Source: Escherichia coli
Lineage (GTDB): Bacteria; Pseudomonadota; Gammaproteobacteria; Enterobacterales; Enterobacteriaceae
Direction: 5' to 3' (one strand)
Length of the DNA stretch: 64,000 nt
NCBI RefSeq assembly: GCF_044324785.1
Contig: NZ_CP172127.1
In this document: positions 1-10,877 of the stretch, in pieces
Layout: each line of letters opens with the position of its first letter
Numbering within the stretch: position 1 is the first letter of the stretch
Notes under the pieces: generated by a model
Told to the model about the DNA's origin: nothing
Databases searched by the model: none
What the model saw: the letters and a program-made list of their open reading frames with translations, nothing else
Made by a program: the position numbers and the translations under genes

Positions 1-401
1 AAATCCGCCTGCAAGCTGCGCTCATGAAATTCATCAAGGATCACCAATCCAACACCGCTCAGTTCCGGGTCACGCTGGATCATGCGCGTCAGCACGCCTT
101 CGGTAACCACTTCCAGGCGGGTATTCGGCCCGACGCAGTTTTGCGCACGCATCCGGTAGCCAACGGTATCGCCTGGCTTTTCGTTAAGCAGCTCCGCCAG
201 TCGTTGCGCAACGTTACGCGCCGCCAAACGACGCGGCTCCAACAGGATAATTTTCCCGTTAATGCCGGGATGCGCCAGCAGTTGCAGCGGCAGCCAGGTT
301 GATTTCCCGGCCCCGGTCGGCGCACTTAATAACACCTGCGATGCACAATCGAGAGCGGTAAGTAATTCAGGTAAGACGGCAGCAACGGGCAACGACGACA
401 C
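1..401 (-). CDS. hrpB: ATP-dependent RNA helicase HrpB, N-terminal part (gene continues beyond window start)
   Basis: Minus-strand frame from GTG at 401 reads VSSLPVAAVLPELLTALD...LLSAPTGAGKS (DEAH-helicase Walker A); divergent from ligT as in E. coli. Not in ORF track because no stop inside window. Confidence 0.8.
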   Translation of the reverse strand, partial: MSSLPVAAVLPELLTALDCASQVLLSAPTGAGKSTWLPLQLLAHPGINGKIILLEPRRLAARNVAQRLAELLNEKPGDTVGYRMRAQNCVGPNTRLEVVTEGVLTRMIQRDPELSGVGLVILDEFHERSLQAD

Positions 402-474
402 AAAACGCTCCAGAGGGTTAACATTCTTCGCGGCACATTGTAGCATCGCGGTAATTCATAACCGAGTGCCTCAC

Positions 475-1724
<1,250 letters not shown>

Positions 1725-1901
1725 TAGAGTAAGTAACTGGTTAATTTACATTCTGGTCGCGTGCGCAAATACGCTTTTCCTCACACAGTTGTCAAGTGTT
1801 ACGTTTAGATAATTGCTATCCGGAAAAGCATCTGCTATTTATAGCGGCCTCATTTTTCCCCCGAACATGGGGATCGATAGTGCGTGTTAAGGAGAAGCAA
1901 C

Positions 1902-2357
1902 ATGCAAGAAGGGCAAAACCGTAAAACATCGTCCCTGAGTATTCTCGCCATCGCTGGGGTGGAACCATATCAGGAGAAGCCGGGCGAAGAGTATATGAAT
2001 GAAGCCCAGCTGGCGCACTTCCGTCGTATTCTGGAAGCATGGCGTAATCAACTCAGGGATGAAGTCGATCGCACCGTTACACATATGCAGGATGAAGCAG
2101 CCAACTTCCCGGACCCGGTAGACCGTGCAGCCCAGGAAGAAGAGTTCAGCCTCGAACTGCGTAACCGCGATCGCGAGCGTAAGCTGATCAAAAAGATCGA
2201 GAAGACGCTGAAAAAAGTGGAAGACGAAGATTTCGGCTACTGCGAGTCCTGCGGTGTTGAAATTGGTATTCGCCGTCTGGAAGCGCGCCCGACAGCCGAT
2301 CTGTGCATCGACTGCAAAACGCTGGCTGAAATTCGCGAAAAACAAATGGCTGGCTAA
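1902..2357 (+). CDS. dksA: RNA polymerase-binding transcription factor DksA
   Basis: [19 protein letters not shown]... 151 aa with C-terminal C4 zinc finger ([25 protein letters not shown]); start is ATG at codon 7 of the track ORF. Confidence 0.95.
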
Positions 2358-2385
2358 TTACAGCCGTTCCATCACGTTTACCACA

Positions 2386-2414
2386 GGCGGGAAATGCTCC
2401 CGCCTTATTTTTTG
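2386..2414 (+). terminator. Rho-independent terminator after dksA (partial read-through into gluQ expected)
   Basis: GC stem ggcggga/tcccgcc with 5-nt loop followed by ttatttttt; lies 5' of the gluQ ATG at 2424. Confidence 0.7.
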
Positions 2415-2423
2415 TTCAACGAG

Positions 2424-3320
2424 ATGACAGACACACACTATATTGGCCGCTTTGCCCCCTCTCCTTCCGGCGAGCTTCATTTTGGTTCTCTGATTGCCGC
2501 GCTTGGCAGCTATTTACAGGCTCGCGCCCGGCAAGGTCGCTGGCTGGTACGCATTGAAGATATCGACCCGCCTCGTGAAGTTCCCGGTGCCGCAGAGACT
2601 ATCCTGCGCCAGCTGGAACATTACGGTCTGCACTGGGACGGCGACGTTCTCTGGCAATCGCAACGTCACGACGCCTATCGCGAAGCACTCGCCTGGTTAC
2701 ATGAGCAAGGACTAAGTTATTACTGCACCTGCACGCGCGCGCGTATTCAAAGCATTGGCGGTATTTACGACGGCCATTGCCGGGAATTGCATCATGGACC
2801 AGACAACGCCGCAGTACGTATCCGCCAGCAGCATCCGGTCACTCAATTTACTGACCAGCTGCGCGGCATTATTCACGCCGACGAAAAACTGGCGCGGGAA
2901 GATTTTATTATTCATCGCCGTGATGGTTTGTTTGCCTATAACCTGGCGGTGGTGGTGGATGATCACTTCCAGGGCGTGAGCGAAATTGTCCGCGGGGCAG
3001 ATTTGATCGAACCAACTGTGCGGCAAATCTCGCTGTACCAGCTTTTTGGCTGGCAAGTGCCAGATTACATTCATCTTCCGCTGGCGCTTAATCCACAAGG
3101 CGCTAAACTTTCCAAGCAGAATCATGCGCCTGCGTTGCCGAAAGGCGATCCGCGCCCGGTACTAATCGCGGCACTTCAATTTCTGGGTCAGCAGGCAGAA
3201 GCACACTGGCAGGATTTCAGCGTCGAGCAAATCCTTCAGTTAGCCGTCAAAAACTGGCGGCTTACCGCCGTGCCTGAGTCGGCAATTGTAAATTCAACAT
3301 TCTCAAATGCGTCATGCTGA
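2424..3320 (+). CDS. gluQ: glutamyl-Q tRNA(Asp) synthetase
   Basis: [23 protein letters not shown]... class I aaRS HIGH-like motif; track ORF starts at 2394 but that ATG sits in the terminator loop, so 2424 preferred. Confidence 0.85.
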
Positions 3321-3379
3321 GCTATGATTAGCCGCTATTTTTTTGTCCTGAATGATGTTTGACACTACCGAGGTGTACT

Positions 3380-4777
3380 ATTTTTACCCGAGTCGCTAAT
3401 TTTTGCCGCAAGGTGCTAAGCCGCGAGGAAAGCGAGGCTGAACAGGCAGTCGCCCGTCCACAGGTGACGGTGATCCCGCGTGAGCAGCATGCTATTTCCC
3501 GCAAAGATATCAGTGAAAATGCCCTGAAGGTAATGTACAGGCTCAATAAAGCGGGATACGAAGCCTGGCTGGTTGGCGGCGGCGTGCGCGACCTGTTACT
3601 TGGCAAAAAGCCAAAAGATTTTGACGTAACCACTAACGCCACGCCTGAGCAGGTACGTAAACTGTTCCGTAACTGCCGCCTGGTGGGTCGCCGTTTCCGT
3701 CTGGCTCATGTGATGTTTGGCCCGGAGATTATCGAAGTTGCGACCTTCCGTGGACACCACGAAGGTAACATCAGCGACCGCACGACCTCCCAACGCGGGC
3801 AAAACGGCATGTTGCTGCGCGACAACATTTTCGGCTCCATCGAAGAAGACGCCCAGCGCCGCGATTTCACTATCAACAGCCTGTATTACAGCGTGGCAGA
3901 TTTTACCGTCCGTGATTACGTTGGCGGCATGAAGGATCTGAAAGACGGCGTTATCCGTCTGATTGGTAACCCGGAAACGCGCTACCGTGAAGATCCGGTA
4001 CGGATGCTGCGCGCGGTACGTTTTGCCGCCAAATTGGGTATGCGTATCAGTCCTGAAACCGCAGAACCGATCCCTCGCCTGGCTACCCTGCTGAACGATA
4101 TCCCACCGGCACGCCTGTTTGAAGAATCTTTGAAACTGCTGCAAGCGGGCTACGGTTACGAAACCTATAAGCTGCTGTGTGAATATCATCTGTTCCAGCC
4201 GCTGTTCCCGACCATTACCCGCTACTTCACGGAAAATGGCGACAGCCCGATGGAGCGGATCATTGAACAGGTGCTGAAGAATACCGATACGCGTATCCAT
4301 AACGATATGCGCGTGAACCCGGCATTCCTGTTTGCCGCCATGTTCTGGTACCCACTGCTGGAGACGGCACAGAAGATCGCCCAGGAAAGCGGCCTGACCT
4401 ATCACGACGCTTTCGCGCTGGCGATGAACGACGTGCTGGACGAAGCCTGCCGTTCACTGGCAATCCCGAAACGTCTGACGACGTTAACCCGCGATATCTG
4501 GCAGTTGCAGTTGCGTATGTCCCGTCGTCAGGGTAAACGCGCATGGAAACTGCTGGAGCATCCTAAGTTCCGTGCGGCTTATGACCTGTTGGCCTTGCGA
4601 GCTGAAGTTGAACGTAACGCTGAATTGCAGCGTCTGGTGAAATGGTGGGGTGAGTTTCAGGTTTCCGCGCCACCAGATCAAAAAGGGATGCTTAACGAGT
4701 TGGATGAAGAGCCGTCACCGCGTCGCCGTACTCGTCGTCCACGCAAACGCGCACCGCGTCGTGAGGGTACCGCATGA
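3380..4777 (+). CDS. pcnB: poly(A) polymerase I
   Basis: ...[21 protein letters not shown]... [18 protein letters not shown] nucleotidyltransferase motif; annotated start is ATT at 3380 (non-canonical); track ORF opens at TTG 3359. Confidence 0.85.
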
Positions 4778-5253
4778 CAGTGGCGTATATTGCCATAGGC
4801 AGCAATCTGGCCTCTCCGCTGGAGCAGGTCAATGCTGCCCTGAAAGCATTAGGCGATATCCCTGAAAGCCACATTCTTGCCGTTTCTTCGTTTTACCGCA
4901 CTCCACCGCTGGGGCCGCAAGATCAACCTGACTACCTCAACGCCGCCGTGGCGCTTGAAACCTCCCTCGCCCCGGAAGAGTTACTCAACCATACACAGCG
5001 CATAGAGCTGCAACAGGGTCGTGTTCGTAAAGCGGAACGCTGGGGACCGCGTACGCTGGATCTCGACATCATGCTGTTTGGTAATGAAGTGATAAATACC
5101 GAACGTCTGACCGTTCCGCACTACGATATGAAAAATCGTGGCTTTATGTTGTGGCCGCTGTTTGAGATTGCGCCGGGACTGGTGTTTCCTGATGGAACAG
5201 TATTAGGAAATTTATTAAAAATAAATAAATTTCATGAATTAAACAAATGGTGA
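4774..5253 (+). CDS. folK: 2-amino-4-hydroxy-6-hydroxymethyldihydropteridine pyrophosphokinase (HPPK)
   Basis: [35 protein letters not shown]... 159 aa; overlaps pcnB stop by 4 nt. Confidence 0.92.
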
Positions 5254-5600
5254 TTTAATGATTTCATGAATATAAATAAATTCCGAAAAATAACCTTACC
5301 CATTGCAATTAATATATTCCCTAAGCTACAACCATAATTAATATTATATACCCCGCTAACACCTTCTACCTCACATACAATATTTCTTCCGCTTTGTACA
5401 TTAAGCTTTACTTAAAGATGAATTAAGTGGATATATAAATTTAAATATGCACAATATCCCACTTGGTGATGAACAGATGTTACATTCAGTAAATCTTCAC
5501 ATTCATCATTAACAAACCAATCTATTTTTCTCTATCGGGGTTCTTTGTCTGAAAGTACCCGATCGTAGTTAAACTCATGGAATATGATTCAAGGATTATT

Positions 5601-6173
5601 ATGTCTAAAAAATTAGGTTTTGCCCTGTCTGGTCTAATGCTGGCAATGGTTGCAGGTACTGCTTCTGCTGATATGGACGGTGGTCAGATTAACATCAGTG
5701 GCTTGGTTAGCGATAACACCTGTGAAACAAAAGTTGATGGCGGCAAGCAAGATGGCCTGGTTCTTCTGCAAACTGCAACGGTTGCTGAAATTACCGCTGG
5801 TGTATCTGAAACTGCTGTCGGCGCCAAAGCGAAACCGTTTAGCATTACTGTAGACTGCAGCAAAGCGACTCCGGGAGGCCAACCGACTCTGACATTCGGT
5901 TCAGTCTTCTTTGGTAACAGTCGTGGCACTTTGAATAACGATATGTCCATCACCACCCCGTCATCTGGTGTGAATATCGCCCTGCACAACATTGACGGCA
6001 CCACGGTTAAACAAGTCAAAATTAATAATGCATCTGATGCTTACACTAAAGCATTAACCAATAATGTTGCAGTCTTTGACTTCAAAGCCTCCTATGTTCG
6101 TGAAGACAACTCAACACCAGCAACGGCTGGTTATGTAAGAACCAACACAGCTTACACCATCACCTACAATTAA
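5601..6173 (+). CDS. yadN: fimbrial major subunit, YadN-like
   Basis: [23 protein letters not shown] signal peptide, conserved Cys pair, C-terminal ...[13 protein letters not shown] typical of type 1-like pilins; first gene of the yad chaperone-usher operon. Confidence 0.75.
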
Positions 6174-6265
6174 GTTATTCGTTGGTGATTTAAATTACTA
6201 CAAGGGTGCGACACCTATTGTCGCCCCCTTGTCTTGAAAACAATTCATGTCATGGATGGTATATT

Positions 6266-6997
6266 TTGTTAAATAAAAAGAATATTGTCGCATTATGTGT
6301 TGTCAGTAGTATGGCATTTAGTATGCCTGTTATGGCCGATATTGTTATTTCCGGTACACGCGTCATTTATAAAAGTGATCAAAAAAGCGTTAGCGTACGC
6401 CTGGAGAATAAAGGCAATAGCCACCTGTTAGTACAAAGCTGGCTGGATACCGGTGACGATAACGCTGAGCCAGGAAGCATTAATGTACCATTTACGGCAA
6501 CACCTCCCGTTTCACGTATTGATGCTAAACGCGGTCAAACCATCAAATTGATGTATACCGGCAGTACCGTACTCCCCAGCGATAAAGAAAGCGTATTCTG
6601 GTTTAACGTGCTGGAAGTGCCCCCAAAACCAGATGCTACAAAAGTGGAGAATCAGAGCCTGTTACAACTGGCTTTCCGTACCCGTATCAAGCTGTTCTAT
6701 CGTCCGGCAGGATTAAACGGTAACCCGTCTGAAGCACCATTAGCCCTGAAATGGAAATGGGCTGAAGGGAAGTCTGGCCTGAGTGTATATAACCCAACAC
6801 CTTATTACGTCTCTTTCAACAGCGCAGAGTTAATCGCTGGCGGTAAGTCGAACCCGCTCAACGTAAAAATGATTGCACCGAAAAGCGAAGAGATTTTCAC
6901 CATAAGCGGTTCAGGCGGGAAAGCAACGTCAGGAAAGGTACATTTCTCAGCGATCAATGATTTTGGCGGCGCAATTGAAGGCGATGTCAATTTGTAA
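6266..6997 (+). CDS. yadV: periplasmic fimbrial chaperone (PapD-like), YadV/EcpD-like
   Basis: Mature part ADIVISGTRVIYKSDQKSVSVRLENKGNSHLLVQSWLD... is PapD-family; no in-frame ATG gives a signal peptide, so the start is TTG 6266 (SD-like ggatgg upstream) or GTG 6206. Confidence 0.7.
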   Translation: MLNKKNIVALCVVSSMAFSMPVMADIVISGTRVIYKSDQKSVSVRLENKGNSHLLVQSWLDTGDDNAEPGSINVPFTATPPVSRIDAKRGQTIKLMYTGSTVLPSDKESVFWFNVLEVPPKPDATKVENQSLLQLAFRTRIKLFYRPAGLNGNPSEAPLALKWKWAEGKSGLSVYNPTPYYVSFNSAELIAGGKSNPLNVKMIAPKSEEIFTISGSGGKATSGKVHFSAINDFGGAIEGDVNL

Positions 6998-7031
6998 GAC
7001 CAGGGACCTTATGCAGCAGGAAGCCAATGTA

Positions 7032-9632
7032 ATGAAAACAACGACATCGACTAAACGCCATAATCTTACGCGTATCGCAATGTATTGCTCAATTATGTAT
7101 AGCGGCGCTACCATCGGAGCCGAAAGCGTTGAGTATGACCCTACCTTTTTAATGGGTGGCAACGCTTCCAGTATTGATGTTAGCCGCTATAGCGATGGCA
7201 ACCCGACTTTGCCTGGTGTTTACGATGTTAGCATCTATGTTAACGAGCAACCTGTTGCTAACCTGGAGATCCCCTTTATCGCGATCCCCGAAAAAAAGAA
7301 TGCTCAAGCCTGTATTACCCTGAAAAATCTACTACAACTTCATATCAAGCCCCCCCCGGCAGACGAGGAAAATACTATCCTTCTTCCACGGGATGAAACG
7401 CTTGGCAACTGTCTTGACCTGTCGTTAGCCATACCTAAATCCTCAGTGAGCTATGACCCCTCTGAACAACGTCTGGATATCAATGTTCCCCAGGCGTGGG
7501 TGATGAAGAATTATCAAAACTATGTGGACCCATCACTTTGGGAAAATGGCATTAACGCGGCTACGCTGTCTTATAACATCAACGCTTATCGCAGTGAAAA
7601 TTCAAATTATACAAATGATAGCGTTTATACATCGTTCAATGGTGGCGTCAATTTAGGTGCCTGGCGTCTGCGTAGCAGCGGTAACTATAGCTGGAGAAAC
7701 GACGCGGGAAGCAATGTTGAGTTTATGAATCGCTACGTCCAGCGCGACATTACCGCTATTCGCTCGCAGCTCATTATGGGGGAATCCTACACCACAGGTG
7801 AAACGTTCGATTCCGTTAGTATCCGCGGCATTCGCTTATACAGCGATAGCCGAATGCTGCCGCCAGTATTGGCAAACTTCGCCCCAACAATTCGTGGTGT
7901 AGCGAATACCAACGCCAAAGTCAGCATTACCCAGGGTGGATACAAAATTTATGAAACCACTGTTCCACCGGGACCTTTTGTCATTGATGATCTCAGTCCG
8001 TCAGGGTATGGCAGCGATCTTATCGTAACCATTGAAGAAGCTGATGGCAGCAAGCGTACATTTTCTCAGCCATTTTCTTCAGTAATTCAAATGCTGCGCC
8101 CGGGTGTTTCTCGCTGGGATATCAGCGGCGGGCAAATTAATAAAGACGACTTGCATCATGAACCAAACTTACTACAAGCGACCTATTACCGTGGTTTAAG
8201 TAACCTGTTCACTGGCTATACTGGTTTTCAGGTCACAGATAATCATTATGCTGCAGGCTTACTTGGCATTGGGATGAATACTTCTGTCGGCGCAATTTCC
8301 TTCGATGTCACCCACTCCAGTGTCGATATACCGGATGATAAAAGGTACCAGGGGCAAAGCTATCGCATCTCCTGGAACAAATTTTTTGACCTGACAGATA
8401 CATCATTAAACATCGCGGCTTACCGCTACTCCACGCAGGACTATCTGGGCCTGAATGATGCATTAACACTTATTGATGAAGTTGAACATCCCACTCAGGA
8501 TCTTGATCCCAAAACTATGCGCAACTACGGGCGCATGAAAAACCAGTTCACCGTAAGCATTAACCAACCGCTACGCTTTGGGAAGGATGATTATGGCTCG
8601 TTCTATACCTCTGGAAGCTGGTCTGATTACTGGGGGGGCGGTAAGAGCCGTAGCAACTATTCGGTCGGCTACAGTAACAGCGCTTCATGGGGAAGCTACA
8701 GTATCAGCGCTCAACGATCCTGGGATGAGTACAGCCAAACAGAAAACAGTATTTACCTCAGCTTTTCGATACCTATCGAAAAACTGATGGGTACGGAGCA
8801 CCGTGATTCCGGTTTCCAAAGTATTGATACACAACTTAGTACCAATATGGATGGTAATAATCAGTTCAACATGAGCAGTAGCGGTTATAGCAACGATAAT
8901 CGCGTGAGCTATAGCGTGAACGCGGGTTATGGGATGAATAAAACCGGCAAAGATCTCAGCAACATCGGGGGTTATGCCAGCTATGAATCGCCATGGGGAA
9001 CGCTAGCTGGGTCAGTCTCTGCTACCAGCGATAATAACCGCCAGTACTCCGTTAATACAGATGGTGGATTTGTGTTGCACAGCGGAGGACTTACGTTCAG
9101 CAACGACAGTTTCAGTGATAATGACACCATTGCTCTGGTTAAAGCACCGGGTGCAAAAGGGGCGCGTATTAACTACGGCAACAATACCGTTGACCGTTGG
9201 GGATATGGCGTAACCAGTGCTCTTTCACCATACCAGGAAAACAAAATTGCTCTGGACACTGAAAACCTGGAAAACGACATCGAAATGAAGAGCACCAGTA
9301 CAGTTGCCGTACCACGCCAGGGCTCGGTTATCTTTGCTGGTTTTGAAACCAATCAGGGACAATCTGCGATTATGAATATCAAACGCAGTGACGGAAAAGG
9401 TATCCCCTTCGCCGCCGATATTCATGATGAAACAAATGCAATCATTGGCAACGTTGGGCAGGGCGGGCAGGCATTTGTTCGCGGTATTCAGCAGCAGGGC
9501 ACGATAAAAATCACCTGGCTGGAAGCCAGCATGCCCAAAACCTGTATTGCGCAGTACCAGCAACCCAATGTGACATCGGAGAAAATCCAGCAAACGATTA
9601 TTCTCAATAATATTCTTTGCCAGCTCCAATAA
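7032..9632 (+). CDS. htrE: outer-membrane fimbrial usher, HtrE-like
   Basis: MKTTTSTKRHNLTRIAMYCS... about 866 aa with usher motifs (ITQGGYKIYETTVPPGPFVIDDLSPSGYGSDL); start ATG at 7032 preferred over the track start 6957. Confidence 0.85.
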   Translation: MKTTTSTKRHNLTRIAMYCSIMYSGATIGAESVEYDPTFLMGGNASSIDVSRYSDGNPTLPGVYDVSIYVNEQPVANLEIPFIAIPEKKNAQACITLKNLLQLHIKPPPADEENTILLPRDETLGNCLDLSLAIPKSSVSYDPSEQRLDINVPQAWVMKNYQNYVDPSLWENGINAATLSYNINAYRSENSNYTNDSVYTSFNGGVNLGAWRLRSSGNYSWRNDAGSNVEFMNRYVQRDITAIRSQLIMGESYTTGETFDSVSIRGIRLYSDSRMLPPVLANFAPTIRGVANTNAKVSITQGGYKIYETTVPPGPFVIDDLSPSGYGSDLIVTIEEADGSKRTFSQPFSSVIQMLRPGVSRWDISGGQINKDDLHHEPNLLQATYYRGLSNLFTGYTGFQVTDNHYAAGLLGIGMNTSVGAISFDVTHSSVDIPDDKRYQGQSYRISWNKFFDLTDTSLNIAAYRYSTQDYLGLNDALTLIDEVEHPTQDLDPKTMRNYGRMKNQFTVSINQPLRFGKDDYGSFYTSGSWSDYWGGGKSRSNYSVGYSNSASWGSYSISAQRSWDEYSQTENSIYLSFSIPIEKLMGTEHRDSGFQSIDTQLSTNMDGNNQFNMSSSGYSNDNRVSYSVNAGYGMNKTGKDLSNIGGYASYESPWGTLAGSVSATSDNNRQYSVNTDGGFVLHSGGLTFSNDSFSDNDTIALVKAPGAKGARINYGNNTVDRWGYGVTSALSPYQENKIALDTENLENDIEMKSTSTVAVPRQGSVIFAGFETNQGQSAIMNIKRSDGKGIPFAADIHDETNAIIGNVGQGGQAFVRGIQQQGTIKITWLEASMPKTCIAQYQQPNVTSEKIQQTIILNNILCQLQ

Positions 9633-9644
9633 TACGAAAGAGAG

Positions 9645-10211
9645 ATGACAATGATAAAAAACTCACGGTATAAAATAGTACTCCTGACAGGCATTTTTTT
9701 ACTGCCCGGCGCACTGGCACAAGATATTAATGTTGATTTTGTTGCCACAATCAAAGGCACGACATGTAATATCACTCTGGAAGGGACACGCGTCACCGCT
9801 GATGGAAATAATCAGTACACGCTACGGATATTAAATGTTGCTCTGGATAAAATCATAAACAAGATGCCAGAAGCACAAGCCGACTTTAAACTGGTCGCTA
9901 ATTGTGATGGTAACATAGGCAAGATTACGACATCGCTGGCAGGGAATCCTTCAGGAGAGTTACCCTATTTAATTTCTCCATTAACTTCAGATAATTCATC
10001 CACCACAGAATATATTGCTATGGGGATTAAACTTCGAAATACCTCTGACACTGAATTTATTCCCCCAGATGGTTCTAAAAAGATTTCCTGGGGAGAGGGA
10101 TTAACAAAACCGGAACTTGAGATGACGGTAGCACTTCGCGAAACCCGACCAGGTTCAGGAAGAGCAGGTAGTTTTAAAGCACTTGCGACATTCAATTTCA
10201 CCTATGAATAA
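9645..10211 (+). CDS. yadM: fimbrial minor subunit, YadM-like
   Basis: 188 aa, signal peptide MTMIKNSRYKIVLLTGIFLLPGALA, pilin-like C-terminus ...ALATFNFTYE. Confidence 0.7.
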   Translation: MTMIKNSRYKIVLLTGIFLLPGALAQDINVDFVATIKGTTCNITLEGTRVTADGNNQYTLRILNVALDKIINKMPEAQADFKLVANCDGNIGKITTSLAGNPSGELPYLISPLTSDNSSTTEYIAMGIKLRNTSDTEFIPPDGSKKISWGEGLTKPELEMTVALRETRPGSGRAGSFKALATFNFTYE

Positions 10212-10224
10212 AAGGATAATAATA

Positions 10225-10824
10225 ATGCAGATGAAATCATTACATTATGGGATATTTGCAAGCATTACTCTGAGCTTATTATTATTCAGCACGTTTTCTA
10301 TAGCCATCACTGATAACATTGGCCTAAACGTTATGACCATTGTTGAAAACAGAACTTGTCAAAGCGAAATCAACAACCAGGGGTTGGTTAATCTTGGCAC
10401 TGTTGGAGTGGGATATTTTGCCAGTAATGTTAGTGCGGAAGATAATTATCCAGGCGGAAAAACCTTTACTGTGACAGTAAAAGATTGCCCCTCCGCTGGC
10501 ACAACATCAAGTCAGTTGCATATAGAATTTAAACCTGTCAGTGGTGTAATGGCCACTGGTAGCCAACAGATATTCGCCAATAATCATGTCGGCGGCGCAC
10601 AAAATGTAGGAATCGTTATTTTTAGCCAAAATAATCAGTCATCGGATACAGTGAATGTGCTGTCACCAACAGGGCAGTTTCGCACGGTCTGGCCTGTTGT
10701 CTCTGCGAATATGAATAATTCATCGTGGCAATTTTATACACGAATGCAGAAAATAGATCCGTTACTCCCGGTTGGTGCAGGATTTGTTACCAGTAACGTA
10801 TTAGTTGATATTTATTATCAATAA
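10225..10824 (+). CDS. fimbrial minor subunit (YadL/YadK-like)
   Basis: ATG at 10225 behind SD aaaagga; MQMKSLHYGIFASITLSLLLFSTFSIA signal peptide; pilin fold cysteines; ends ...VLVDIYYQ. Confidence 0.65.
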   Translation: MQMKSLHYGIFASITLSLLLFSTFSIAITDNIGLNVMTIVENRTCQSEINNQGLVNLGTVGVGYFASNVSAEDNYPGGKTFTVTVKDCPSAGTTSSQLHIEFKPVSGVMATGSQQIFANNHVGGAQNVGIVIFSQNNQSSDTVNVLSPTGQFRTVWPVVSANMNNSSWQFYTRMQKIDPLLPVGAGFVTSNVLVDIYYQ

Positions 10825-10877
10825 TTATGCTAAGCATAATGCTTCTACAAATATTATTTTTTCAAAGGAGTGATAAG

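Follow-up and report, generated by a model that had tools for sequence, protein, structure and literature searches.

Where does the DNA that is alignable in all E. coli give way to the variable yad fimbrial block, and why does the change fall inside the reading frame of folK? We addressed these questions in a window of 64,000 nucleotides of E. coli DNA (assembly GCF_044324785.1, contig NZ_CP172127.1) that represents the pcnB-folK-yad-panBC region.

Locus layout

A fimbrial chaperone-usher operon occupies the gap between folK and panB, which in most Enterobacteriaceae is a spacer of ~120 nt. The hypervariable AT-rich yad block spans ~5196..12171 and includes an 18-codon tail of folK.

4774..5253, + strand: folK (HPPK), 159 codons plus a TGA stop (ORF list; N3 folK annotation; HPPK structure match)
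5577..12128, + strand: yad-type chaperone-usher operon of six genes (ORF list; collinear with the S1-ZIM-01-A annotation)
12140..12162, + strand: candidate operon terminator, a GC-rich 9-bp hairpin (gcaccgcca/tggcggtgc) 3' of the adhesin stop (by eye from the sequence, unscored)
12172..12241, + strand: right boundary of the variable block; similarity to the sequence upstream of panB in island-free genera restarts here (local alignments)
12242..13036, + strand: panB, the right-hand flanking core gene (ORF list and K-12 comparison)

The operon encodes a major subunit, a chaperone, an usher, two minor subunits and an adhesin, and is a 96.9% collinear match to the six-gene operon of S1-ZIM-01-A, annotated in the order fimbrial protein, chaperone, usher, fimbrial protein, fimbrial-like protein, adhesin. 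The ORFs and this collinearity thus provide every component of a yad-type operon at the folK-panB site (major subunit, periplasmic chaperone, outer-membrane usher, minor subunits and tip adhesin). Site and gene types are those of the known Yad locus (yadN-ecpD/yadV-htrE-yadMLKC), but the window version has six genes, lacks yadK and is only 65–71% identical to the K-12 operon. Differences between the window and S1-ZIM-01-A (hereafter S1ZIM) concentrate at 10600..11600, the initial ~1 kb of the adhesin gene, taken to be the lectin-domain half. Lectin-domain variation in YadC has been published, and yad allelic subtypes and recombination between phylogroups are documented (PMC13245861).

At the right-hand end, the hairpin at 12140..12162 is probably the operon terminator, judging from its sequence. 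Local alignments with Citrobacter, Salmonella, Klebsiella and Enterobacter begin at window position 12172–12173, which corresponds to ~50 nt past their folK stop. Divergence of panB is moderately raised, with about 90–97% identity to K-12, a figure that also applies to the panB/panC side.

FolK and its allele-specific C-terminus

The folK gene annotated in E. coli N3 is 100% identical in DNA to that of the window, whose TGA stop lies at 5251..5253. FolK residues 1–159 matched E. coli HPPK chains (8sif, 1hka and others) with E about 1e-95 in a phmmer search against PDB, and all 84 columns that are invariant among 28 Enterobacteriaceae FolK sequences are present, W159 included. No part of the protein is less conserved across the Enterobacteriaceae than the tail: invariant columns run through D140, and W159 is the only one thereafter. 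An AlphaFold2 model (pLDDT 76.8, pTM 0.78) has an alpha/beta fold, in which the tail forms a helix at 144–150 followed by coil, with moderate confidence for residues 151–159. Core residues and C-terminus thus appear compatible with the HPPK fold, and function is probably retained.

The gene divides into the following segments.

4774..4901, + strand: folK 5' segment, codons 1–42, typical E. coli core (pS = 0.00 vs K-12, S1ZIM, AR434 and O157)
4902..5195, + strand: folK mosaic core, codons 43–141, with synonymous near-saturation between haplotypes and a conserved protein (pS and alignments)
5185..5195, + strand: tttcctgatgg (F-P-D-G), the last stretch identical in the nine haplotypes compared (alignments, megablast ends)
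5196..5253, + strand: allele-specific folK tail, 18 codons plus stop, 17% GC (at least six E. coli tail types; pN 0.38 vs K-12)

The GC content of the tail (17%) contrasts with about 55% in the folK core. The K-12 protein ends in APELVFPDGEMLRQILHTRAFDKLNKW (FEIAPELVFPDGEMLRQILHTRAFDKLNKW) and does not share the window's C-terminus. The first-pass annotation had given the K-12 ending FEIAPELVFPDGEMLRQILHTRAFDKLNKW correctly and predicted a sharp drop in identity near position 5190; comparison of folK 3' ends from E. coli genomes located this drop at 5195/5196. Most megablast alignments stop at query position 422, i.e. window position 5195, and every listed genome without a related tail aligns over exactly query 1–422 (4774..5195). 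The accompanying statement that the rest of the gene is near-identical to K-12 was correct for the protein, in which only A36T and G135E precede the tail, but not for the DNA, which has about 86% identity to K-12 over 4901..5195. These comparisons put the end of the DNA alignable in all E. coli, and the start of the allele-specific yad block, within folK behind codon 141, and 5185..5195 would be the final place for a homologous crossover before the variable block.

Tail haplotypes in E. coli and related genera

At least six FolK tail types occur in E. coli, all giving proteins of 159–160 aa that terminate in W or WY. Together with the intergenic region, they form at least six mutually unalignable haplotypes at one folK-yadN site among 5,426 complete E. 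coli genomes. Assigned by BLAST coverage (80% or more of tail and intergenic region) and identity bands, the K-12 type was found in 2,951 of the 5,426 genomes, the ST131 type in about 610, the CFT073 type in 560, the window type (T1) in 464, the O157 type in 341 and an E. whittamii-like type in one; base-by-base alignment took in nine E. coli haplotypes only. Two of these tail and intergenic haplotypes correspond to the ST131 (EC958-like) and CFT073-like yad subtypes of PMC13245861.

Among 79 Enterobacteriaceae species representatives, folK adjoins panB (within about 120 nt) in 66, with a GC-normal tail of the form ...AEKPAxW; in these island-free species the tail GC is 0.60, and 64 of the 66 have the P..W motif. 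In the twelve species with an usher gene between folK and panB the tails are aberrant, and their GC falls as low as 0.24; the window tail has 0.17. The tails of the K-12, CFT073 and window types are extremely AT-rich and lack the ancestral ...KPxxW motif, and could have arrived with foreign DNA instead of drifting in place. A T1-like copy of tail plus spacer is present in a separate Escherichia species (represented by L009).

Divergence profile and junctions

Synonymous divergence from K-12 (pS) was 0.00 in codons 1–42, 0.49 in codons 43–141 and 0.55 in the tail, whereas pN rose from 0.009 before codon 142 to 0.38 in the tail. Codons 43–141 contain 35 synonymous and two non-synonymous differences from K-12 (dS about 0.8), and their pS did not differ significantly from that of the tail (Fisher p = 1.0), a comparison of low power because the tail holds only about 9 synonymous sites. 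Since it is non-synonymous divergence that jumps at 5196, the cliff in alignability there would mainly mark where amino-acid constraint ends.

The sole difference from K-12 within 4774..4901 is at 4879, and the diverged tract begins ~300 nt before the cliff, with the first dense differences at 4902–4929. Among five E. coli strains, pS was 0.00 in codons 1–42, 0.05–0.63 in codons 43–91 and 0.14–0.58 in codons 92–141, and pairwise matrices showed the same gradient for other strain pairs, with values up to 0.63, similar to E. coli versus Salmonella. Synonymous diversity in folK is therefore elevated and falls off away from the locus, as in the flank of a hypervariable region. A patchwork of shared variants is visible in the haplotype alignment of codons 43–141, and in two pairs, K-12/AR434 and E. 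whittamii/2017-02-2CC, the tail is common to both members and the core differs.

The position of the junction depends on the lineage with which the window is compared: ~4902–4929 for K-12, 5178–5196 for S1ZIM and 5636–5658 for N3. Against the S1ZIM type, the commonest carrier of the window tail (about 448 genomes), 31 differences fall in 4929..5178 and none in 5179..5292 (Fisher p = 7e-7); for this pair there is a true change of ancestry at the boundary of the tail, 5178..5196. The nearest genome and the sole near-identical one, N3, has no differences from the window over 3614..5635, dense differences from 5636/5658 onward, and from 5658 a different yad operon of seven genes.

5636..5658, + strand: junction inside the yadN 5' end, where identity to N3 stops (difference map vs N3)

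The Chi sequence GCTGGTGG, considered as a cause of the junctions, is absent from window positions 1..14806. A 7/8 Chi-like GCTGGTGT was read by eye from the alignment at 5178..5185 in other strains.

Origin of the boundary

All haplotype pairs have the cliff at the same place. It is probably both the fixed left edge of a variable block and the point at which purifying selection relaxes, and not the scar of one event; homologous recombination that swaps haplotypes, not one exchange, would have made the folK core mosaic. The yad operon of E. coli would comprise several haplotypes of great age that cannot be aligned with one another. The last 18 codons of FolK, under weak constraint, would sit between the F-P-D-G codons and an AT-rich, H-NS-silenced yad control region, a position through which the tail would travel and diverge with the haplotype and would have turned AT-rich. 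Homologous recombination between strains would swap yad haplotypes by crossovers in flanking homology: left in the folK core, right in panB/panC, and between them in the conserved yadN 5' end. This would leave folK codons 43–141 as a mosaic of anciently diverged synonymous variants that ends abruptly at 5195/5196. The strain itself would then consist of three pieces: a backbone like that of N3, including a rare patch of folK core (4902..5178); a tail and intergenic region of the common T1 type, from 5179 to about 5635; and, from about 5658, a six-gene yad operon of the S1-ZIM type. We infer the order of these events, as well as AT drift of the tail in place and selection maintaining the haplotypes.

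The first-pass annotation had placed the breakpoint of the island exchange inside the 3' end of folK. The boundary after codon 141 and the S1ZIM junction agree with this, but a single exchange is not supported. A single homologous-recombination event replacing the yad island, with its left crossover in the last ~20 folK codons, native DNA upstream and imported tail and downstream DNA, would account for alignability to most E. coli genomes stopping exactly at 5195, for the island-like tail GC of 0.17 and for the S1ZIM junction between 5178 and 5196/5292, and fits some lineage pairs. We nevertheless consider it rather unlikely as the general explanation: the diverged tract against K-12 begins near 4900, synonymous divergence in codons 43–141 equals that of the tail, the junction with N3 lies in yadN at 5636..5658, and a cliff common to all haplotype pairs better fits a boundary of constraint or homology.

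Very much less probable is a mobile island integrated site-specifically at the folK 3' end that brought a substitute gene end, even though the restored frame has exactly 159 codons, the last of them for W, and composition changes abruptly at the junction. In eight related genomes only fimbrial genes, and no integrase or recombinase, are annotated between folK and panB; 5150..5330 and 12050..12260 share no direct repeat of at least 8 nt and no inverted repeat of at least 9 nt; no displaced ancestral folK tail lies upstream of panB at the right end; and other Escherichia and Pseudocitrobacter species, with the operon at the same site, have intermediate tails that keep the ancestral P..W motif. 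The locus is thus without mobile-element signatures, and the integrase-island reading is largely refuted. A single 8-nt inverted match connects 5150..5330 and 12050..12260.

Intergenic region and regulation

5254..5576, + strand: AT-rich folK-yadN intergenic region, the yad regulatory region, 25–30% GC (composition; K-12 counterpart in the literature)

GC content was 25–30% over 5200..5600. A simple promoter scan of 5100..5700 returned a single promoter-like site, a weak sigma-70-like one at 5309..5338, against 3.0 expected in shuffles. A terminator scan of 5100..5700 returned no site at or after the folK stop, and 4700..5700 gave no Rfam match at E up to 1. A terminator-like hairpin was located within folK at 5121..5141.

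The K-12 yadN/folK spacer is listed as an H-NS-associated "promoter island" at 156927+379 (PMC3661553); this interval extends over the last ~53 nt of folK (157253..157732) and matches the variable tail. Upstream of yadN the window likewise has about 380 nt of AT-rich DNA, but the K-12 island was defined computationally and by K-12 binding data (PMC3661553), whereas the window carries a different and even more AT-rich haplotype. H-NS represses the yad promoter (PMC13245861), and its binding has been reported for the K-12 and CFT073 haplotypes (PMC3661553, PMC13245861).

The tail itself may be under selection, either diversifying selection on the FolK C-terminus or selection for an AT-rich tail as part of the H-NS-bound yad silencing region, but we regard this as improbable. 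The overlap of the K-12 promoter island with the folK tail, the fall of tail GC only where a fimbrial operon follows, and the K-12 and AR434 tails, which differ by four amino acids and no synonymous changes, speak for it; T1 and T1' have a pN/pS of about 0.26, pointing to purifying selection (tiny counts), and tails vary between island-free genera as well. We give equally little credence to a stronger form, in which the coding tail has been absorbed into the yad regulatory and silencing domain, so that its 18 codons co-evolve with the promoter haplotype, have been driven to 17% GC and form part of an H-NS nucleation region. If this were true, tail plus spacer (5196 to about 5635) would form a regulatory module that can be exchanged as a cassette on its own and is kept across Escherichia species, and the short swapped 11-mers around the folK stop, together with the invariant GAATATAAATA patch described below, would be protein-binding elements of that module.

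Comparison with known systems

The classic E. coli housekeeping gene that diverges by hitch-hiking next to a hypervariable surface-antigen locus is gnd, beside the rfb O-antigen cluster. Like gnd/rfb, the folK-yad site has deeply diverged haplotypes at one chromosomal position, a neighbouring core gene whose synonymous diversity is strongly elevated and falls off with distance (pS 0.0 to 0.6 within folK), and mosaic recombinants. It differs in that the variable block starts within the folK reading frame, so that the last 18 residues of the enzyme are allelic, and in that the neighbour is a cryptic chaperone-usher fimbrial operon and not a polysaccharide cluster. As in integrase islands that rebuild the 3' ends of their target genes, a gene end has been replaced with length and terminal residue preserved, but folK-yad is without integrase, att direct repeats or a displaced original end. 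The literature that we searched on yad covers allelic variation and contains nothing on the folK tail; the text of PMC13245861 has no occurrence of "folK" and no left boundary position.

The variable folK tail is ordinary flank behaviour of a variable locus, with the swapped repeats as a minor AT-rich oddity, and the general understanding of variable loci and their flanks is unchanged by it. For annotation, E. coli FolK has several legitimate C-termini that are neither errors nor truncations, and the tail type indicates the yad control-region haplotype, ST131, CFT073/Nissle, K-12 and O157 each having their own. Like panB and panC, folK is a poor phylogenetic marker in E. coli, with two-thirds of the gene recombinant and anciently diverged. 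The last 18 residues of HPPK, an antibacterial target, show natural polymorphism within a single species.

Short repeats around the folK stop

The first-pass annotation had described two short blocks around the folK stop that recur in swapped order, at 5230..5249 and 5264..5285. Both blocks exist as exact 11-mers, although at other positions.

5221..5231, + strand: block X copy 1, ataaataaatt, within the coding tail (exact match)
5229..5239, + strand: block Y copy 1, atttcatgaat, codons K-F-H-E, with a palindromic core ttcatgaa (exact match)
5261..5271, + strand: block Y copy 2, atttcatgaat, 8 nt past the stop (exact match)
5272..5282, + strand: block X copy 2, ataaataaatt, inside a conserved non-coding patch (exact match)
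5267..5289, + strand: non-coding patch tgaatataaataaattccgaaaa, containing a TATAAA hexamer (haplotype alignments)

The first pair overlaps by 2–3 nt and sits in the coding tail (I N K F H E codons), 12 nt 5' of the TGA. At block X copy 1 the ST131-type allele reads aaaaataaatt, with one mismatch, and block Y copy 1 is homologous to K-12 tttgacaaat. In block Y copy 2 the first 6 nt are allele-specific, other haplotypes having gtaacg, ttcgtg, tattgc or gctgtg before a shared tgaat, and block X copy 2 is identical in the ST131-type haplotype and in the Escherichia species represented by L009. Within the patch at 5267..5289, GAATATAAATA is invariant in all six family-A haplotypes, and its flanks are hypervariable; in CFT073-type genomes the match to the window is confined to 5230..5314.

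The swapped 11-mers are most likely a coincidental similarity in low-complexity AT-rich DNA, in which lineage-specific substitutions would have sharpened the match and one copy happens to lie in a conserved non-coding patch; we found no link between them and a rearrangement mechanism. That they are the footprint of a local event, either an interrupted short tandem duplication or a templated micro-conversion copying atttca from the coding to the downstream copy, we consider unlikely. In its favour, in 5,000 dinucleotide-preserving shuffles of 5196..5560, a post hoc test that left the (ataa)n-like low complexity of block X unpreserved, at least two direct repeats of at least 10 nt within 100 nt arose in 1.4% and a swapped-order pair in 0.12%, and the pair is the only one in the 64 kb window. 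Clustered changes in the downstream copy relative to related haplotypes create the 11-nt match, and a one-base gap extends the similarity to about 19/21 nt between 5229..5248 and 5261..5281 (by eye). Against a local event, the 6-nt stretch is different in every haplotype, so that the ancestral state is not inferable, and much of the similarity (gaat...taaa.aaat) occurs in K-12-type alleles too and is in part dictated by the F-x-E/K-L-N-K-W codons. The region 5190..5300 also folds no better than shuffles (MFE -11.1 kcal/mol, z = 0.03). The hairpin drawn there is a pairing of the two quasi-palindromic ttcatgaa copies. An inverted-repeat reading of the blocks was rejected, the reverse complement of ataaataaatt being absent. 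The inverted repeats that do occur are weak and AT-rich, such as GAAATTTATT/AATAAATTTC at 5207/5224.

Organization of the region and the identity drop in folK

Positions 1..14000 of the window cover the E. coli thpR-sfsA-dksA-gluQ-pcnB-folK-(fimbrial operon)-panB-panC region. Compared with the ancestral arrangement, roughly 5196..12171 stands in place of about 107 nt.

Features between pcnB and panB
4774..5253, + strand: folK, ORF of 159 residues, overlapping the pcnB stop by 4 nt
5251..5253, + strand: folK TGA stop
323 nt 3' of folK: folK-yadN spacer, very AT-rich (25-30% GC)
5577..12128: chaperone-usher operon, six genes
from 12242: panB

The first-pass annotation had placed the breakpoint that exchanged the fimbrial (yad) island inside the 3' end of folK and predicted a drop in identity near 5190. 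A megablast search with 4774..5620 found matches in 5,424 of 5,426 complete E. coli genomes, only 1,075 of them at ≥80% query coverage; among the matches listed, genomes without a related tail all aligned at exactly query positions 1-422 (window 4774..5195). The motif tttcctgatgg (5185..5195) was identical in nine of nine haplotypes aligned base by base, which were unalignable from the next base. The predicted drop is therefore real and lies at 5195/5196.

Upstream of codon 142, the FolK proteins of the window and K-12 differed only by A36T and G135E. The K-12 protein ends ...APELVFPDGEMLRQILHTRAFDKLNKW (strain MC1061 and solved E. coli HPPK chains), exactly as given in the first-pass annotation. 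All E. coli versions of the tail (codons 142-159) give a FolK of 159-160 residues, each preceded by a shared ...FPDG. Tail types were counted by searching each tail plus its spacer against the 5,426 genomes.

FolK tail types and their counts
Window, N3 (the nearest genome) and S1-ZIM-01-A: one shared 18-residue sequence; 464 genomes at ≥90% identity, 100% only in N3
ST131 type: own 18-residue sequence; about 610 genomes
CFT073/Nissle type: LSLVEALQAKGFNELDKW; 560 genomes (CFT073 type)
K-12: EMLRQILHTRAFDKLNKW; AR434: ETLREVLHTRAFDKLSKW; 2,951 genomes (K-12/AR434 type)
O157:H7: ETLREILTSLAVLQPAIWY; 341 genomes (O157 type)
2017-02-2CC and E. whittamii: ETLQVILTKLNTIQPEIW; 1 genome (E. whittamii-like type)

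Present in 464 of 5,426 genomes, the window's tail is a minority allele but a common one, and no oddity of one strain. A contig labelled E. coli SCPM-O-B-8794 (L009; NZ_JAATUR010000043.1, 1007..1900) was 83% identical in folK codons 1-42 and 95% identical to the window in 5048..5195; judged by its divergence it is a separate species, still with a tail like the window's (TVLDNLLRTNKFNELNKW, 81% nt), which suggests sharing or exchange of this haplotype between Escherichia species. A K-12-type E. coli folK fragment on a 524-nt contig (coverage 0.7) of a Terrisporobacter mayombei assembly is almost certainly contamination of a Firmicutes assembly.

Divergence along folK and recombination junctions

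Divergence from K-12 was calculated by the Nei-Gojobori method.

Divergence of the window's folK from K-12
Codons 1-42 (4774..4899): pS 0.00, pN 0.011
Codons 43-141 (4900..5196): pS 0.49 (35 synonymous, 2 non-synonymous; dS about 0.8), pN 0.009
Tail, codons 142-159 (5197..5250): pS 0.55, pN 0.38

Codons 43-141 and the tail showed no difference in synonymous divergence (Fisher p = 1.0); this divergence was as large as that between the window and Salmonella or E. albertii. Because pS is already high there and dense differences are first seen at 4902-4929, the ancient tract relative to K-12 starts about 300 nt 5' of the identity drop; the jump at codon 142 is one of non-synonymous change. Pairwise matrices of other strains showed the same gradient, with pS of 0-0.09 in codons 1-42 (typical E. 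coli strains), maxima of 0.63 in codons 43-91 and 0.58 in codons 92-141, and pN ≤0.05 until the tail. Short patches of lowered K-12 identity (85-95%) within about 99% identical sequence were also observed at 2901..3000 (gluQ) and at 4001..4200 and 4601..4700 (pcnB), and the recombination mosaic therefore reaches several kb left of folK.

S1-ZIM-01-A, which stands for about 448 genomes carrying the window's tail at 95-99% identity, was collinear with the window across the whole operon (96.9%). The two differed at 31 positions in 4929..5178, at none in 5179..5292 and at 13 in 5179..5650 (Fisher p = 7e-7), so that in this comparison a junction lies at the tail boundary. In the comparison with N3, the window showed zero differences in 3614..5635 and dense differences from 5636/5658, at the 5' end of yadN; the N3 operon is a different one of seven genes. 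A shared tail type was also joined to different cores in K-12 and AR434, and likewise in E. whittamii and 2017-02-2CC. The window is therefore a three-part mosaic of a backbone like that of N3 carrying a rare patch in the folK core, a common cassette of tail plus spacer, and an S1-ZIM-type six-gene operon.

The proposed breakpoint thus found partial support: the variable yad block has its left edge within the final 18 codons of folK, and some lineage comparisons (S1-ZIM-01-A) map a junction there, but against K-12 the diverged tract begins near 4900, and the junction with the nearest relative falls in yadN.

From 5636..5658 onward the window follows the S1-ZIM-type operon, with a clean recombination junction in the region of the major-subunit signal peptide. 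Differences from that operon (elsewhere about 99% identical) cluster at 10600..11600, the 5' part of the adhesin gene, at 12-38 per 200 nt; this part is taken to be the lectin-domain half of a YadC-like adhesin, and the pattern fits the allelic variation published for the lectin domain of YadC.

Protein constraint and other genera

Scanning a single genome for each species gave 80 folK loci, with tails extractable in 79. In 66 of the 79, panB lay within about 120 nt 3' of folK; the tails of these 66 averaged 60% GC (minimum 50%), and 64 kept a ...P..W ending (consensus xxLxxxLxxLxAEKPAxW). An usher gene lay between folK and panB in 12 loci (Escherichia species, Pseudocitrobacter, some Citrobacter and Superficieibacter), whose tails were aberrant, with GC as low as 24%; the window's tail has 17%. 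Across 28 FolK sequences, invariant columns extended up to D140, and beyond it only W159 was invariant; the tail is the least constrained part of FolK everywhere. The drop at 5195/5196 thus mainly marks the end of protein constraint.

The window's FolK is most likely functional, given a full-length match to solved HPPK and a predicted helix at 144-150 (moderate confidence). Homology to island-free genera resumes at 12172, in the panB promoter region, about 50 nt past the folK stop of those genera; alignment with them revealed no displaced folK tail at this right edge.

Codon 135 (5177..5179) is gga (Gly) in the window and N3, and gag, gaa or aag (Glu or Lys) in all other E. coli haplotypes compared. 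The change from gag to gga is a two-base swap, and Gly occupies the same position in Trabulsiella. The Gly codon disrupts a 7/8 Chi-like sequence (GCTGGTGT) present at 5178..5185 in other strains.

Swapped short repeats

The two short blocks earlier described in swapped order around the folK stop both exist as exact 11-mers, although they had been placed inaccurately.

Positions of the repeats
ataaataaatt: 5221..5231 and 5272..5282
atttcatgaat: 5229..5239 and 5261..5271

The first pair lies within the coding tail, and the second starts 8 nt past the TGA stop. Among 5,000 dinucleotide-preserving shuffles of 5196..5560, 1.4% contained two such repeats ≤100 nt apart and 0.12% a swapped-order pair; the pair is unique within the whole 64 kb. 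As this test was post hoc and on low-complexity DNA, we rate the arrangement as only mildly unusual.

A small templated conversion is a minor alternative to coincidence. The resemblance is partly imposed by shared codons (F-x-E/K-L-N-K-W), and the second ataaataaatt sits in a non-coding patch just 3' of the stop (tgaatataaataaattccgaaaa, 5267..5289), whose core GAATATAAATA was invariant in six of six related haplotypes, including the separate species L009, between hypervariable flanks. In the ST131-type allele, the first ataaataaatt has a one-base mismatch. The first six bases of the second atttcatgaat are specific to the window's allele, and this stretch differs in every haplotype, so that it allows no ancestral state to be inferred. 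Around the folK 3' end and the repeats, neither an Rfam family nor a terminator was found and the sequence folded no better than its shuffles; no matching repeats were found at the far end of the variable block. On these grounds, we regard the swapped blocks as coincidental in DNA that is AT-rich and partly conserved. A TATAAA hexamer also lies in the patch at 5267..5289, a possible distal promoter of yad or binding site.

Proposed mechanism

The region is probably a hypervariable surface-structure locus with recombining flanks, a further example of a well-known pattern. Homology-dependent crossovers would be possible in the folK core, the conserved 5' end of yadN (about 82% identity even to K-12) and panB/panC (90-97% to K-12), and impossible inside the unalignable blocks. 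Because the loosely constrained tail lies past the last conserved codons, it would be linked to the spacer haplotype and diverge along with it, its extreme AT content matching the adjoining H-NS-silenced control region. In K-12, a published 'promoter island' (156927, length 379) overlaps folK (157253..157732) by about 53 nt, which is very nearly the tail (PMC3661553). For yad, H-NS repression and allelic subtypes are documented, with distinct types in ST131 and CFT073 and inter-phylogroup recombination (PMC13245861); neither that paper nor one on recombination hotspots mentions folK. The sequence of events is inferred, as is the choice between drift of the tail in place and its acquisition from a relative; intermediate tails with a retained P..W (E. 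albertii, E. whittamii, O157, Pseudocitrobacter) favour gradual divergence in place.

The Chi site GCTGGTGG was absent from 1..14806, and the remainder of the window has 16 copies, against 2 expected from shuffles. Between panC and an Rpn-family nuclease gene, a stretch unalignable to K-12 (about 13986..14476) carries 12-nt tandem arrays, about six copies of ttcctgtcttac plus tcctgtcttcct-like units, at 14083..14160 and 14423..14520.
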